In this document: piece after piece, positions 43,051 through 47,359 of the stretch
How positions within the stretch are numbered: the first letter of the stretch is position 1
Layout of the letters: every line of letters starts with the position of its first letter
Assembly: GCA_963695335.1 (NCBI GenBank)
Contig: OY968764.1
Location: 576,001-640,000, forward strand
Direction of reading: 5' to 3'
DNA length: 64,000 nucleotides
Origin: an uncultured bacterium
GTDB taxonomy: Bacteria > Babelota > Babeliae > Babelales > Vermiphilaceae
Notes under the pieces: generated by a model
What the model saw: only the letters and a program-made list of their open reading frames with translations
What the model was told of the DNA's origin: nothing
The model's database searches: none
Program-made: the position numbers and the translations under genes

Positions 43051-43737
43051 ATGAGTATGAAGATTAAAAATATATTGTTGTGTGCTATTCTCTTTTGTTC
43101 AATCATAAAAAGTGAAGGTGTTTCCGATCCGGTAGAAGCTGTGTTTACTCATATTTATAAGTCAAAATTTTGGTTGTTAGGAGAAAGTGTTTCTGGTCCA
43201 GGGTCAGAATTACGAGTTACACAACGGATGCGTCCACAGCTGAGTGCGCTTATCAAACGGTTTGGTATTAATTCTATAGCAGATGCACCATGTGGGGATC
43301 TTCATTGGATGAGATATGTTGATTTAGGAACATGCAAATACATTGGGTATGATATTGTTCAAGAGTTGATTGATCGTAACACAAAACTTTTTGGAGACAC
43401 AAAAGAGTTTAGACACTTTAACCTTGTTGATAATGTGATTGAAAAAGTAGATCTTATCATATGTCGCGACATGCTTGCACATCTTACACATGAACAAATT
43501 GTAAAAGCTTTAAGAAATTTCAAAAAAAGTGGATCAAAATATATCTTAATGACGACAGGGCTGACAACAAAAGATAATAGTCCTGATATTACAACGGGAG
43601 AAGTAAGAAGAATCAATTTTGAATTACCACCATTTAATTTCCCTCGTCCATTGGCTTTGATTGAAGAAGATATACCATTTGAATGTGAACGTGGTAAACA
43701 TTTGGCATTATGGTTTTTAGATGATATTAATGTATAA
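43051..43737 (+). CDS. Class I SAM-dependent methyltransferase-like protein with signal peptide
   Basis: ESVSGPGS, SIADAPCGD, YIGYDIV, DLIICRDMLAHL. Confidence 0.75.
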   Translation: MSMKIKNILLCAILFCSIIKSEGVSDPVEAVFTHIYKSKFWLLGESVSGPGSELRVTQRMRPQLSALIKRFGINSIADAPCGDLHWMRYVDLGTCKYIGYDIVQELIDRNTKLFGDTKEFRHFNLVDNVIEKVDLIICRDMLAHLTHEQIVKALRNFKKSGSKYILMTTGLTTKDNSPDITTGEVRRINFELPPFNFPRPLALIEEDIPFECERGKHLALWFLDDINV

Positions 43738-43760: not shown

Positions 43761-43800
43761 AATAAATAGCGCTTGGTAAAAACCAGGCGCTATTTTTATT
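43761..43800 (+). terminator. Intrinsic terminator
   Basis: aaatagcgcttggt...accaggcgctattttt. Confidence 0.8.
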
Positions 43801-43858: not shown

Positions 43859-45034
43859 GTGAGAAGAAAACCATTACATTTTATGATGTTACATCTATTG
43901 TTATGGGTTGGATTATTGCAACCCGATGGATTTGTTGAGCATACGTTAGTCAAACATGAATATGGTTTTAAACCAATTCAACATTTTGTTGTAGGCAATA
44001 ATGTTGTTGTGGTCGCTGATGGCGGACAACTGCAGCAAAATTCTGTATCTCACACCATGAGCTATGTTGCTGATTGTTTTATAAAAATTCAGATTAAAGA
44101 TATTTGTGTTTGTGCAGCACCAGATCAAAAATTTTATTCATGCACTAGAAATGATTGGGTGGGTGCTCGTGCATTACATGTTTCAGAACAGCTGTTGTGT
44201 GGTAGTGGAAATGTTGTCTCTGTTGATGCAGTTGAAATGGTGCATAAGCAACAAAGAATGCATGCGTTTACTGTTGATACAAGTCATATCTTTTGTGTAA
44301 CTCCGTATGAAATTATTGCGCATAATGTTGAACCAGTTTCTATGGTCGGAACAGCAACCATTGTTCTTCCTGCATTAACTACTGCATGTCCACCAGCAGG
44401 AATTGTTGCAGGAGTGGCATGGGGCATTCTGGGTTGTGTGATGTTTTGTAAGCATAGAAAAGCTCATAGATATGAATTGCAACATAAAGGCTGTTTTTCT
44501 CCTGAGAGTAGAAATGGTACAACAACACCAATCGCTAGCGGTTGTTATGAACCTGTACAAAATGTTCCTATTGTTTGTGATATAAAAGCTGGAAAAGAAG
44601 ATCTTCCTACCAAGTTGGTTCATGAAATTCCTGAGAATAATGTTGATAAAGGTTGTGAATTTCCTATTCATGTTGAACAACCTATATTGCATCACGCTGC
44701 AACAATTCAAACTGATGGTGATGAAAATAGGCATTATGAGGGACCTTGGTATAATCGCACGGAAGATTGGGTGAAGGAGTTTAAACATAAAGATAAGCTT
44801 GGGCGGACAGATCACTTTAATCAAGGTAAGCGTCTTTTTAAAGTGCTTAAAAAGATAGAGGATTCTGATGCTTTAAAAAAAGGGGATTATGTAGTAGTTG
44901 ATGCTTTACATAACGATCATCTGGAAGTATATGATGGAAGCCGCAATTGGAAGTGTGTTGCAAATTTTGATGGTACTAAAAATGAACAGAAAACACAGCA
45001 AGCTAAACGAACATTACGACATCGAGCATTTTAA
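43859..45034 (+). CDS. Polymorphic toxin: signal peptide, Hint domain, TM segment, Ntox21-like RNase
   Basis: GAGG RBS + GTG; GFVEHTLV...KPIQ...VGN...FTV..SHIFCV...IAHN; C-terminal KKGDYVVVDALHNDHLEVYD...VANFDGTKNEQKT. Confidence 0.8.
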   Translation: MRRKPLHFMMLHLLLWVGLLQPDGFVEHTLVKHEYGFKPIQHFVVGNNVVVVADGGQLQQNSVSHTMSYVADCFIKIQIKDICVCAAPDQKFYSCTRNDWVGARALHVSEQLLCGSGNVVSVDAVEMVHKQQRMHAFTVDTSHIFCVTPYEIIAHNVEPVSMVGTATIVLPALTTACPPAGIVAGVAWGILGCVMFCKHRKAHRYELQHKGCFSPESRNGTTTPIASGCYEPVQNVPIVCDIKAGKEDLPTKLVHEIPENNVDKGCEFPIHVEQPILHHAATIQTDGDENRHYEGPWYNRTEDWVKEFKHKDKLGRTDHFNQGKRLFKVLKKIEDSDALKKGDYVVVDALHNDHLEVYDGSRNWKCVANFDGTKNEQKTQQAKRTLRHRAF

Positions 45035-45059
45035 TTTCGATTAGGTTTTAGGGTATTAT

Positions 45060-45758
45060 ATGAAAAATGATAAATGGCTTGAAGAAATAGATAGAAAAGT
45101 TGAAGAAGAACGTAGGGCCTATCGAGGTCCACATTGTTGTATGACTATGCATTATGAATTATTAAGCGAAGCAAGCTTATTAATTTATAATATTCAATGG
45201 CGAGAGTATGGTATCAAATTGTATAGACCAAATACTGGCTATTTACTGATGCAATATTGTACGGATTGTGGTACAAAATTACCTGATTCATTAAAAAATA
45301 TGTGGTTTAATATTTTAAAAGAAGAATACTTTCTAATAGATCCAATAGAGAATGATAAGGAGCTAATTCCTGAAAAATTTTTGACAGATGAATGGTGGAA
45401 TCCGAATAGAATTTTTAATAGTTATCGAGGTAATCAAGAAGTAAGTAGAAATATAAAAATAAAAAGTAACATAACCCATTGTTGTGATGCTTTAGATTAT
45501 GAATTACTTAACAAAACCAGCGTATTAATGTATTCACCAAAATACCGTGAATATAATATAAAACTCCCAAGTTTTCCCGGTGGGGCAGCGATGGATTATT
45601 GCCTGTTTTGTGGCCAACAATTTCCATTTTCAGTACGTTGTGAGTGGTTTGATATACTAAGGGAAGAATATCAATTAGAAAGTCCTTGTGAGGGGGATAA
45701 AAAGAAAGTTCCTGCACAGTTTTGGACAGATGAATGGTGGAAAAATCGTGGATTATAA
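45060..45758 (+). CDS. Candidate immunity protein, two CC...CxxC domains (DUF6980-like)
   Basis: HCC...REY.I...YCxxCG..(L/F)P.S....WF.IL...F.TDEWW occurs twice; directly after toxin. Confidence 0.7.
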   Translation: MKNDKWLEEIDRKVEEERRAYRGPHCCMTMHYELLSEASLLIYNIQWREYGIKLYRPNTGYLLMQYCTDCGTKLPDSLKNMWFNILKEEYFLIDPIENDKELIPEKFLTDEWWNPNRIFNSYRGNQEVSRNIKIKSNITHCCDALDYELLNKTSVLMYSPKYREYNIKLPSFPGGAAMDYCLFCGQQFPFSVRCEWFDILREEYQLESPCEGDKKKVPAQFWTDEWWKNRGL

Positions 45759-46098
45759 AGAATGGAGTGATGCAATAGATGCAAGGGTCGCGGAAAAAAG
45801 ACGTAATTATAAAGGACCTCATTGTTGTTTAACAATGGATGCCGGATTATCCATGGCAGGAGCTATTTTATACTATGATAAACAATATCGTGAATATGGA
45901 GTAGATTTTGGCGTAAGAGGAGGGATGTTAATTGATTACTGTATGTTTTGCGGTAAAAAACTACCAATATCTGTACGTGATGAATGGTTTGATATATTAG
46001 AAAAAGAATATGGGTTAGAAGAACCTTTACATGAAGATAAGAAAAAAGTTCCTGCTGAGTTTTGGACAGATGAATGGTGGAAAAAACGCGGGTTATAA
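45748..46098 (+). CDS. Candidate immunity protein, single CC...CxxC domain
   Basis: GTG 45748 gives MDYKEWSDAID, aligning with MKNDKWLEEID; HCC, REYG, YCMFCG, FWTDEWW. Confidence 0.7.
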   Translation: MDYKEWSDAIDARVAEKRRNYKGPHCCLTMDAGLSMAGAILYYDKQYREYGVDFGVRGGMLIDYCMFCGKKLPISVRDEWFDILEKEYGLEEPLHEDKKKVPAEFWTDEWWKKRGL

Positions 46099-46103
46099 AA
46101 ATG

Positions 46104-46128
46104 ATGCCAGCTTAAAAACTGGCATTTT
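46104..46128. terminator. Short terminator hairpin
   Basis: atgccag...ctggcatttt between convergent genes. Confidence 0.6.
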
Positions 46129-46132
46129 CTTT

Positions 46133-47359
46133 TTATAGATCATTATAAGATTCATTATCGTGTTCAGAATCCCATTCGCTCAGTGTTGACGCTAGCACTT
46201 GAAGATAATCTTGATCTGTAGAATTTATTAATTGATTAATGTGTGTATATAACATATGTGGATCTTTCTCAACATCACTTTGCGCAAGCATATAAAATTG
46301 TTCTGGATATTCTTCTACCATTGCACATGCATTATCAACTTGATGCGTTGTAGTGTTGGTCATGAGTGGAATAATAATGCATGGTTTACCAAAAAATTTA
46401 ATTTCAAACAAGGTTCCAGCTCCTGCGCGGCATATAATCAGATCTGCGGCCGAATACATGAGTGCAAGATCGGGATGATAACTGAATACATGCGCTGTAA
46501 TATTTTTTGATGCATAGAGTTGTTTCCAATCTGTATTATCAATTGATCCTGTTTGATGAATAATTTGCATAGTATCAGCAGGAAAAGAAGGGTTGTTAAC
46601 CCATTGTTGCATGTATTGGTTCAAAAAGAGGGAACCTTGCGAACCACCAAGAATGGCAATTGTTTTTTTCGCAGGTGATAAGTTTAATTTTTGTAAAGCT
46701 ACTTTTTGATCAAATATGGAATCATATTTGATTGGATACGGTGCAACAGAGCATTTGTGTGCAGGGAAATATTTCTGTGATGTTGCAAATGGGGTAATGA
46801 TTGAAGTTGCAAGGGGAGTTAAAAACTGTATTGCTTTGCCAGGTACAGCATCAAGGGAGTAAAGAGTTATGGGAATGCGTAATATAAATCCTGCTATGCA
46901 TGTTGGGATAGCCACAATGCCACCGGTGGTGAGGATTTGTGTTGGTCTATGCTTGTATAAATAAAAAAAACTTATCAAAAATGAACGACATGCATTGAAC
47001 AATGTTGTGATATAAGACCCTGCGCGTGTGCTGAGCGGGAGCATAACGTGCCATGTAACTGATGCATTGTCTGATAAAATGGTTTTATCAAGTGGCGTGT
47101 TTGATGAAAAGAAAAGAATATTCTTCTGTTCTTGATTCTGGTTATTTTTGATAACCGTAAGGCATGGAATAATATGTCCACCAGATTTACCCGCGACACA
47201 GCAGATTGTTTGTGTATAACATAAATTACTTTGTTTTTTGTCTCCCGCGCTCGCCCTGAACTTGTTGAAGGGTTTCTTCGAGCGCTCTAAGATACCCTTT
47301 AACAAGTTCAGGGCGAGCGCAAGAAAAGATATAAATAAGATTAGCTTAATGATATTCAT
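46133..47359 (-). CDS. murG: MurG glycosyltransferase with repeat-containing N-terminal extension
   Basis: AGKSGGHIIP, TGG, GGSQGS, HQTG, ADLIICRAGAGT..E, HQVDNA; ATGA overlap with upstream stop. Confidence 0.9.
   Translation of the reverse strand: MNIIKLILFISFLALALNLLKGILERSKKPFNKFRASAGDKKQSNLCYTQTICCVAGKSGGHIIPCLTVIKNNQNQEQKNILFFSSNTPLDKTILSDNASVTWHVMLPLSTRAGSYITTLFNACRSFLISFFYLYKHRPTQILTTGGIVAIPTCIAGFILRIPITLYSLDAVPGKAIQFLTPLATSIITPFATSQKYFPAHKCSVAPYPIKYDSIFDQKVALQKLNLSPAKKTIAILGGSQGSLFLNQYMQQWVNNPSFPADTMQIIHQTGSIDNTDWKQLYASKNITAHVFSYHPDLALMYSAADLIICRAGAGTLFEIKFFGKPCIIIPLMTNTTTHQVDNACAMVEEYPEQFYMLAQSDVEKDPHMLYTHINQLINSTDQDYLQVLASTLSEWDSEHDNESYNDL
47247..47320. repeat. Full family A palindrome in-frame in murG
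   Basis: gcgctcgccctgaacttgttgaaggg...ccctttaacaagttcagggcgagcgc, 26-nt arms with one G-T pair. Confidence 0.9.

Follow-up and report, generated by a model that had tools for sequence, protein, structure and literature searches.

Polymorphic toxins that are exported by the Sec pathway and processed by a HINT protease have already been catalogued, and in the passages of Zhang et al. (2012, PMC3482391) considered here, HINT appears in Table 1 as one of the processing proteases of the type II secretion system (T2SS)/Sec class. As described there, such proteins combine a signal peptide, a HINT domain located before a swappable toxin domain and an immunity gene downstream; Dependentiae were not found in the tables of that paper, as far as these passages go. 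Here, we describe a cassette of three genes with a comparable layout in a window of 64,000 nucleotides (nt) of an uncultured bacterium of the Babeliales (family Vermiphilaceae; assembly GCA_963695335.1, contig OY968764.1, positions 576,001 to 640,000 of the forward strand; all positions given below are those of the window). The window belongs to a single contig of 1.37 Mb, and near homologues of its proteins carry the label Candidatus Babeliales, on which basis we regard the genome as one of the Dependentiae. With a probability of roughly 60%, we read this locus as a polymorphic toxin-immunity cassette of the Babeliales, in which the toxin joins an export signal, a Hint domain, a hydrophobic segment and a nuclease tip resembling that of colicin E3 (ColE3), and in which the following DUF6980 genes likely provide immunity. 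The domain make-up, the similarity in fold, the modular swapping of tips and the adjacency of the genes are established here. A first-pass annotation, made from the letters of the window alone, had seen a terminator-bounded unit of three genes encoding a compact Hint toxin that lacks an RHS, haemagglutinin or other delivery stalk; the open reading frames (ORFs) and the flanking hairpins delimit exactly such a unit (Table 1), and the Pfam domain scan of the toxin revealed neither RHS nor haemagglutinin domains.

In comparison to the catalogued Sec-dependent HINT toxins, the Hint domain of the cassette stands directly behind the signal, with no stalk, repeats or adhesion domains, and has no N-terminal Cys; moreover, a hydrophobic segment of 40 residues and a Cys-containing linker of 95 residues part it from the tip. 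The signal peptide proposed in the first pass was only partly recovered: based on composition, a basic and hydrophobic leader is present, but its c-region LLQP (LLQP/DGF) has no canonical small residue at position -1 in the subfamily of ORF1, which renders signal cleavage uncertain. Other carrier subfamilies show A-x-A-like sites at this position (LHA/DGF, LQA/DGF). The Hint domain itself, including its terminal HN, was supported by two profiles. PT-HINT (Pfam PF07591) matched the isolated residues 1-157 with 29.0 bits against a cut-off of 27.7 (E 1.4e-6) and the whole toxin with 26.0 bits, and a profile of 27 members of the Hint family matched the bacterial intein-like (BIL) domain 2lwy of the PDB (E 3.9e-20), which is, among solved structures, the one nearest in sequence to residues 24-156. 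Both domains end in His-Asn, and G24, H143, H155 and N156 are invariant in 27/27 sequences of the family. The cassette family differs from the BIL domain at both ends: Gly24 aligns with position 1 of 2lwy, where an N-terminal Cys or Ser nucleophile is absent in all 27 sequences, and the terminal Asn is followed by Val, Ile, Met, Phe or Ser (Val, Ile or Met in 25/27). Given these residues, neither splicing nor N-terminal cleavage would be expected; since the His-Asn end is retained, the domain is expected to cut only at its own C-terminus by cyclisation of the Asn.

The hydrophobic Gly/Ala segment and the linker behind it lie where the first pass had placed them (residues ~157-197 and 198-292). 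Across 27 family members, the segment has a median length of 40 residues (range 35-55, not counting one sequence in which the delimiting rule failed), and it is predicted to be a membrane segment, either as a single span or as a helical hairpin. The linker showed no family match in Pfam; its motifs GCFSP, GCYEP, VCDI and GCEFP are kept family-wide, including distant members with longer linkers. For comparison, in the one CdiA-type Hint-bearing relative that was checked (P0142), the Pfam Hint domain ends at residue 455 and the match to the tip begins at residue 466.

The C-terminal tip of the toxin is predicted to adopt the fold of the colicin E3 cytotoxic domain and of the CdiA-CT of Enterobacter cloacae (ECL). 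Its structural model, built from a 36-sequence alignment, reached a predicted local distance difference test score (pLDDT) of 89.3 and a predicted template modelling score (pTM) of 0.81. In a VIA-align search of 48,161 representative chains, which was independent of Foldseek, only two chains scored at Z>=5 (next chain, Z 3.7): the colicin E3 cytotoxic domain on the ribosome (4v5k_AY; rank 1, Z 6.5, root-mean-square deviation (rmsd) 3.0 Å, 82/97 residues) and CdiA-CT ECL (4ntq_A; rank 2, Z 5.4, rmsd 2.8 Å, 65/76 residues). Colicin E3 and the E. cloacae CdiA-CT are both ribonucleases (RNases) acting on 16S ribosomal RNA (rRNA). With this search tool, a Z under 8 may reflect a common arrangement, and the weight that we give to the two outliers derives from the fact that both are 16S rRNases and that most of the domain is covered. 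The best named Foldseek rows for the tip were also colicin E3 chains, at E 0.5-1.1 (2b5u_A, probability 0.63, E 0.51), and the nearest named language-model clusters belong to PF09000 (0.89 and 0.88), the Pfam family of the colicin E3/cloacin DF13 cytotoxic domain (Tox-ColE3).

At the sequence level, hhalign aligned the tip profile with PF09000-matching tips of Babeliales at E 4e-4 to 1e-3 and a probability of 22-35%, pairing KKGDYVVVDALHNDHLEVYD of the tip with KKAEYIKWDHLHND-VEAYD of the ColE3-type tips. In this alignment (35% probability), D348, H351 and E356 fall on the D, H and E of the ColE3-type tips, whose own profile matches colicin E3 of the PDB at E 1.9e-7. Within the tip family, D348, H354 and E356 are invariant and H351 is nearly so. 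The conserved residues given for Tox-ColE3 in the consulted parts of Zhang et al. (2012, PMC3482391) are R, Dxx[HK], E and a second H, and the position expected for this second His varies in the tip family (C/H/Q/S/R). Colicin E3 is the best structural match, and a D-x-x-H ... E cluster aligns with the ColE3-type tips; in sister genomes, such tips are borne by this Hint carrier as well and likewise have DUF6980 genes behind them. The tip differs from Tox-ColE3 in the extra invariant His (H354) and in matching neither PF09000 (cut-off 22 bits; no match at E<=10) nor a PDB profile, whereas PF09000 matches two sister tips, L091 with 26.9 bits and L108 with 34.1 bits. Further differences are the DUF6980 genes, which stand in place of the cloacin-type or Imm45 immunity listed in the same passages (Zhang et al. 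2012, PMC3482391), and, in comparison to colicins as a whole, the lack of receptor and translocation domains.

The first-pass annotation had assigned the tip to Ntox21, an assignment that we correct. The motif on which it was based is indeed present (D348-A-L-H-N-D-H-L-E-V357 ... N369-F-D-G372), but Pfam Ntox21 (PF15526; gathering score 25 bits) matched neither the whole toxin at E<=1 nor residues 281-391 at E<=10, while the tip of a 609-residue Hint protein from the same genome (L003:277-2106), which served as a positive control, reached 93.8 bits (E 8.2e-27). The Ntox21 motif given by Zhang et al. (2012, PMC3482391), in the passages at hand, consists of K, [DS]xDxxxH, K, RxG[ST] and RxxD; it was not found in the tip, which has no Asp two residues after D348 and no RxG[ST] following. 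The CdiA-CT of E. cloacae (Ntox21) remains the second-best structural match, and between the two tips a short N-terminal stretch (kT..y.QGq.vfK) aligns weakly (E 0.003, 10% probability). As the fold matches and the profile and motif of Ntox21 do not, we keep the functional assignment at the level of the fold and drop the Ntox21 label: of the earlier claim of an E3-like 16S rRNase, the predicted colicin E3/CdiA-CT fold stands and the membership in Ntox21 does not. We read the tip as an unmodelled family within the ColE3/CdiA-CT(ECL) fold group, nearer to ColE3, which links the colicin E3 and Ntox21 nucleases. An identity with the 'Ntox21-like' family of PMC9424270 was rejected, as the supplementary alignment of that paper, in the part considered, has a different motif.

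An exhaustive HMMER search retrieved 238 representative proteins with the tip at E<=1e-3, matched at their C-terminal end and ranging in length between 62 and 3089 amino acids (aa). Among 42 of these that were scanned for domains, we found LXG (6), PT-TG (3), PT-VENN (3), haemagglutinin repeats (3) and PT-HINT (4), and no Pfam family covered the tip in any of them (0/42). Some relatives are named 'T7SS effector LXG polymorphic toxin' or 'hemagglutinin repeat-containing protein' in their source. A genome scan based on the close 8-sequence alignment added 111 copies of the tip in Bacillus, Streptococcus, Enterobacter, Yersinia, Pseudomonas, Burkholderia and others. Judged by these relatives, the tip genuinely belongs to polymorphic toxins; it is widespread across many phyla and lacks a Pfam model.

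The N-terminal part of the toxin is a carrier for alternative tips, as the first pass had anticipated when it proposed looking for the same N-terminus with other tips. The leader-Hint-hydrophobic carrier was present in 19/41 relatives, including 10/10 genomes of the genus, and in 78/261 Dependentiae genomes at E<=1e-5 (58/189 of those of good quality). Scanning the tips of 18 other carrier proteins revealed Ntox37 in four, Ntox21 in two, Cytotoxic in two and EndoU in one, and the remaining nine had no Pfam name. The genome under study itself encodes carrier proteins tipped by Ntox21 and Ntox37, as well as a paralogue of the toxin at a second locus with an identity of 91.7% (Hint domain), 84.2% (linker) and 57.3% (tip). 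Across these proteins, a constant N-terminal part is combined with alternative tips, and the tip is in turn reused by other secretion classes, two features of polymorphic toxin systems.

Some of the carrier proteins deserve a separate description. The Ntox21 protein of the same genome (L003:277-2106, minus strand, 609 aa) has the order leader, Hint, hydrophobic segment, long helical region and Ntox21; the Ntox37 protein (L004:1456-2316, plus strand, 286 aa) has leader, Hint, hydrophobic segment and Ntox37, and is followed by an 89-aa ORF that belongs to no family. Four carrier proteins of relatives (L093, L094, L107 and L109) have in common an unnamed tip, HPHGIY ... NGQ.CLD.S ... ISIE ... FHGY, that has no Pfam match and represents a candidate further toxin family.

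Directly behind the toxin gene lie the genes that the first pass had seen as a triplicated Cys-rich candidate immunity cassette, a view with which our results agree. Both genes matched DUF6980 (PF22400, threshold 27 bits), ORF2 with 86.1 bits over two stretches and ORF3 with 57.8 bits. The threefold repeat, with a spacing of ~342 nt, corresponds to as many DUF6980 domains: ORF2 is a head-to-tail fusion of two (~45060-45404 and 45417-45755), both of which bear CC...CxxC, and ORF3 contains the third. The four Cys of CC ... CxxC are invariant in 46/46 DUF6980 sequences, the terminal TDEWWKKRGL is nearly invariant, and no signal peptide was seen on any DUF6980 copy. In the 41 genomes, a DUF6980 match was located at most 200 nt downstream and on the same strand for 15/20 tip matches (one cut by a contig end), and DUF6980 also directly follows five ColE3-type tips. 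The number of copies behind a toxin varies between one and four, and orphan copies occur; the genome under study harbours six domains, three in the cassette, two after the paralogue and one orphan. Based on this position, the variation in copy number and the orphans, an immunity role is the best reading of DUF6980, and the DUF6980 proteins of the cassette are likely its immunity proteins.

Cloacin-type or Imm45 immunity was not detected among the downstream proteins with Pfam, where only DUF6980 and weak zinc-ribbon families appeared at E<=1. Imm41, which is listed as an immunity family for Ntox21 in the passages of Zhang et al. (2012, PMC3482391), gave weak sub-threshold matches in 2/10 scanned genes downstream of the wider tip family. 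For the DUF6980 model (pLDDT 90.7), neither Foldseek (E<=1e-3) nor the search of the 48,161 chains (Z>=2) retrieved a match, which is no proof of a new fold, and an Atlas search returned only unnamed clusters (0.87-0.88). A comparable described protein is the 4Cys-Imm of the S8 polymorphic toxin system (PMC9424270), which, as far as the parts of that paper considered here go, is likewise small and cytoplasmic, has four conserved Cys with putative zinc binding, lacks a reliable structural homologue and pairs with RNase toxins. An identity of the two families was rejected, since the supplementary alignment of that paper, in the part considered, shows CxxC ... CxCC instead of the CC ... CxxC of DUF6980 and the flanking motifs are unrelated, in a comparison of alignment patterns.

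Several DUF6980 loci were unusual. The orphan gene of the genome under study (L116:1504-1824, at ~1,297,500 of G000:C1) encodes 106 aa and has no adjoining toxin gene. In two metagenome relatives of 287-288 residues (P0060 and P0062), a complete DUF6980 domain is fused to a leader plus an N-terminal Hint fragment. Both begin with residues similar to those that open ORF3, and they look like recombinants of a toxin and an immunity gene that have lost the tip. At locus L122 (G006:C1:80500-87000), a run of cassettes follows a ColE3-type toxin in which no Hint part could be recognised; within the run, DUF6980 occurs three times at ~1.6-kb spacing, each time with extra small ORFs, two of them recurring; this looks like a poly-immunity array. 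One DUF6980 homologue (P0334; 55% identity over 67% of the query) comes from a source named as a Rickettsia endosymbiont of a biting midge, which extends the family to at least one other intracellular lineage.

We infer cleavage, topology, delivery, substrate and neutralisation from these features as follows. The toxin would be exported by Sec, and its Hint domain would cut at its own C-terminus by Asn cyclisation and release the hydrophobic segment together with the linker and the nuclease. The hydrophobic segment could then insert in the membrane and aid the entry of the nuclease into the cytoplasm of a rival cell, whose rRNA the tip would cleave in the decoding centre via the D348/H351(H354)/E356 cluster. 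Inside the producer, the zinc-type DUF6980 proteins of the cytoplasm would neutralise the tip by binding to it, and additional DUF6980 copies may guard against tips from related strains. A number of observations weigh against the proposed toxin-immunity cassette. Profile searches of Pfam, NCBIfam and the PDB give the tip no name (0 matches at E<=10 in the PDB), and its fold scores are middling: Z 6.5 falls short of the 7-8 that models lacking a clear match usually reach as their best Z, all Foldseek E-values exceed 0.1 with no row at E<=1e-3, and the hhalign probabilities are no higher than 22-35%. The second His, which Zhang et al. (2012, PMC3482391) describe as conserved across the ColE3 fold, has no conserved counterpart in the tip, in which a different His, H354, is invariant instead. 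As for the toxin as a whole, the positive-inside rule, applied to the basic cluster that follows the hydrophobic segment, would place the C-terminus in the cytoplasm and leave the nuclease in the producer, and the signal of the ORF1 subfamily has no canonical cleavage site. As for DUF6980, 5/20 tip copies in relatives have no adjoining copy (all five are weak matches of 32-43% identity, four of them in frames of 542-966 aa), and outside Babeliales DUF6980 was found at 0/80 loci of the tip family, where small acidic helical proteins follow the tip.

Other explanations were weighed as well. Likeness in fold leaves the substrate unfixed, and the middling scores, together with signs of a rearranged active site (H354 invariant, no counterpart of the second His), would suit a ColE3-folded tip that cuts another RNA, such as transfer RNA (tRNA) or ribosome-bound messenger RNA, or that acts without 16S cleavage, the rest of the cassette being as described. 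Assignments within this superfamily have shifted before: Ntox21 was 'shown to be a tRNAse' in a passage of Zhang et al. (2012, PMC3482391), and the relevant part of a review table credits it with cleavage of 16S rRNA. We nevertheless regard another substrate as unlikely, since both outlying solved proteins, colicin E3 and CdiA-CT ECL, are ribosomal RNases and the D..H...E cluster of the tip aligns with that of the ColE3-type tips. It is quite improbable that the toxin is not delivered at all and resides in the inner membrane of the producer, with Hint as a periplasmic loop that joins an uncleaved signal-anchor to the second hydrophobic segment, and a cytoplasmic nuclease held by DUF6980, as an addiction, abortive or stress-triggered self-killing module. 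The basic residues on the predicted cytoplasmic side of both hydrophobic segments (MRRK before the first, KHRKAHR after the second) suggest a cytoplasmic C-terminus and are in line with such a module, as are the missing signal-peptidase site in the ORF1 subfamily, the absence of a secretion partner gene within the cassette and the synteny and vertical retention of the locus, which lies between the methyltransferase gene and murG in four or more genomes of the genus. However, the type VII secretion (T7SS) LXG and type V secretion (T5SS) CdiA toxins, which are delivered, end in the same tip; one to four immunity-like genes plus orphans are typical of a defence against incoming toxins of relatives; other subfamilies have A-x-A-like signal sites; and searches of the three cassette proteins against NCBIfam and the PADLOC defence models gave no match. 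The approximately five conserved Cys of the linker suggest an oxidising, exported setting, and the habits of the tip family likewise suggest export.

Babeliales are intracellular parasites of protists, and the site in the decoding centre that ColE3-type nucleases attack is conserved across ribosomes of all kinds. The parasitic lifestyle with a small genome (1.37 Mb), a target site common to all ribosomes and a tip that is better conserved than the carrier across the genus (58% vs 35%, one orthologue) would all be compatible with an effector directed against protist or mitochondrial ribosomes, from which DUF6980 protects the producer during synthesis only. This host-directed role appears very unlikely to us: self-protection alone would need a single immunity gene and not arrays and orphans, which argue for conflict among related bacteria over a purely host-directed function, the divergence of paralogue tips on a conserved carrier is the pattern of strain-to-strain conflict, and no eukaryote-specific feature was seen. 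The DUF6980 proteins could, in turn, be accessory factors of the zinc-ribbon type, acting for instance as chaperones for export or as activators or regulators of the toxin gene. The four Cys that never vary point to a zinc-binding module such as often occurs in proteins that bind nucleic acids, neither a solved structural relative nor a paper was found for the family, and unrelated helical proteins accompany the same tip family elsewhere. Yet the location directly after the toxin with short or overlapping gaps, the variable copy number, the orphans and the restriction to ColE3-like tips form the signature of immunity genes, and a different four-Cys, probably zinc-binding immunity family is known from Gram-positive polymorphic toxin systems, as far as the consulted part of PMC9424270 goes; an accessory role is therefore distinctly unlikely.

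A polymorphic toxin with DUF6980 immunity remains our preferred reading, and as far as our literature search goes, the compact carrier (Hint without Cys1, hydrophobic segment, Cys linker) and its spread in Dependentiae, the widespread ColE3-like tip without a family model and DUF6980 as a candidate immunity family are new. The search found no paper joining Dependentiae with polymorphic toxins, only community surveys (judged by title) for Babeliales and toxin, nothing relevant for pretoxin HINT with a signal peptide or transmembrane segment, and no paper naming DUF6980. With the family label corrected to a ColE3-like fold outside Ntox21, a tip lacking a Pfam model is defined, and DUF6980 gains a testable immunity role with a fold unseen among solved structures. 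Obligate intracellular Dependentiae with small genomes would keep a modular arsenal of bacterial warfare on a single compact carrier, implying frequent contact with rivals inside their hosts, and the architecture of this carrier poses the tractable question of how toxins are released and delivered without type V, VI or VII secretion machinery. A more far-reaching scenario, in our view rather doubtful as a whole, would make the Dependentiae carrier a phylum-wide delivery vehicle that needs no dedicated secretion system: behind a Cys1-less Hint head that adjoins the signal, a 40-residue hydrophobic hairpin and the Cys-rich linker would jointly insert into a foreign membrane and take swappable tips across it in a colicin-like manner, DUF6980 would be a new zinc-binding fold blocking ColE3-type rRNases, and the targets would be rivals in a shared protist host, possibly also organelle ribosomes.

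Table 1. Features of the toxin-immunity cassette and its boundaries (positions within the 64,000-nt window).
Feature	Position	Strand	Remarks
Terminator-like hairpin, 14 pairs and T-run	43764..43795	+	Ends the upstream methyltransferase gene; 5' boundary of the cassette
ORF1, toxin, 391 aa	43859-45034	+	GTG start; AGAGGA box ahead of GTG
Toxin residues 1-23, basic n-region (MRRK) and hydrophobic core	43859..43927	+	Likely Sec signal or signal-anchor, from composition only
Toxin residues 24-156, Hint (PT-HINT/bacterial intein-like) domain	43928..44326	+	Ends H155-N156 (nt 44321-44326)
Toxin residues 157-197, hydrophobic Gly/Ala-rich segment	44327..44449	+	Central CPPAG, then basic KHRKAHR
Toxin residues 198-292, linker of ~95 residues	44450..44734	+	About 5 Cys, GC[FY]xP-like repeats
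Toxin residues 293-391 and stop, C-terminal tip	44735..45034	+	Predicted colicin E3/CdiA-CT(ECL)-like RNase fold
ORF2, 232 aa, two fused DUF6980 domains	45060..45758	+	Candidate immunity protein; Pfam PF22400 E 2e-24
ORF3, single DUF6980 domain	45730..46098	+	Candidate immunity protein; commonest 'CCLTMD' type
Terminator-like hairpin, bidirectional	46103..46126	.	Between the cassette and convergent murG

The three same-strand ORFs are located between a methyltransferase gene (43051-43737) and a convergent murG gene (46133-47359), in a region with six terminator-like sites compared to 2.0 +/- 1.6 in shuffled sequences. Among public sequencing runs, only four soil-metagenome DNA rows had small shares, and no RNA run was listed. 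At least four genomes of the genus share, in synteny, the gene order methyltransferase, toxin and DUF6980, with one to three DUF6980 domains per locus (locus G002:C8 ends at a contig edge); murG also lies downstream in one of these loci (L110), the remaining ones being too short to reveal it. A reading of ORF2 and ORF3 as one frameshifted gene with three domains was rejected, as the stop of ORF2 has the same place after the common RGL end as that of ORF3. Frames for ORF3 were called at 45688/45730/45748-46098, and its candidate starts are ATG 45730, which falls within the final 29 nt of ORF2 (45730-45758), or GTG 45748; homologues of ORF3 start at either of these sites (MNGGK... or MDYKEW...).

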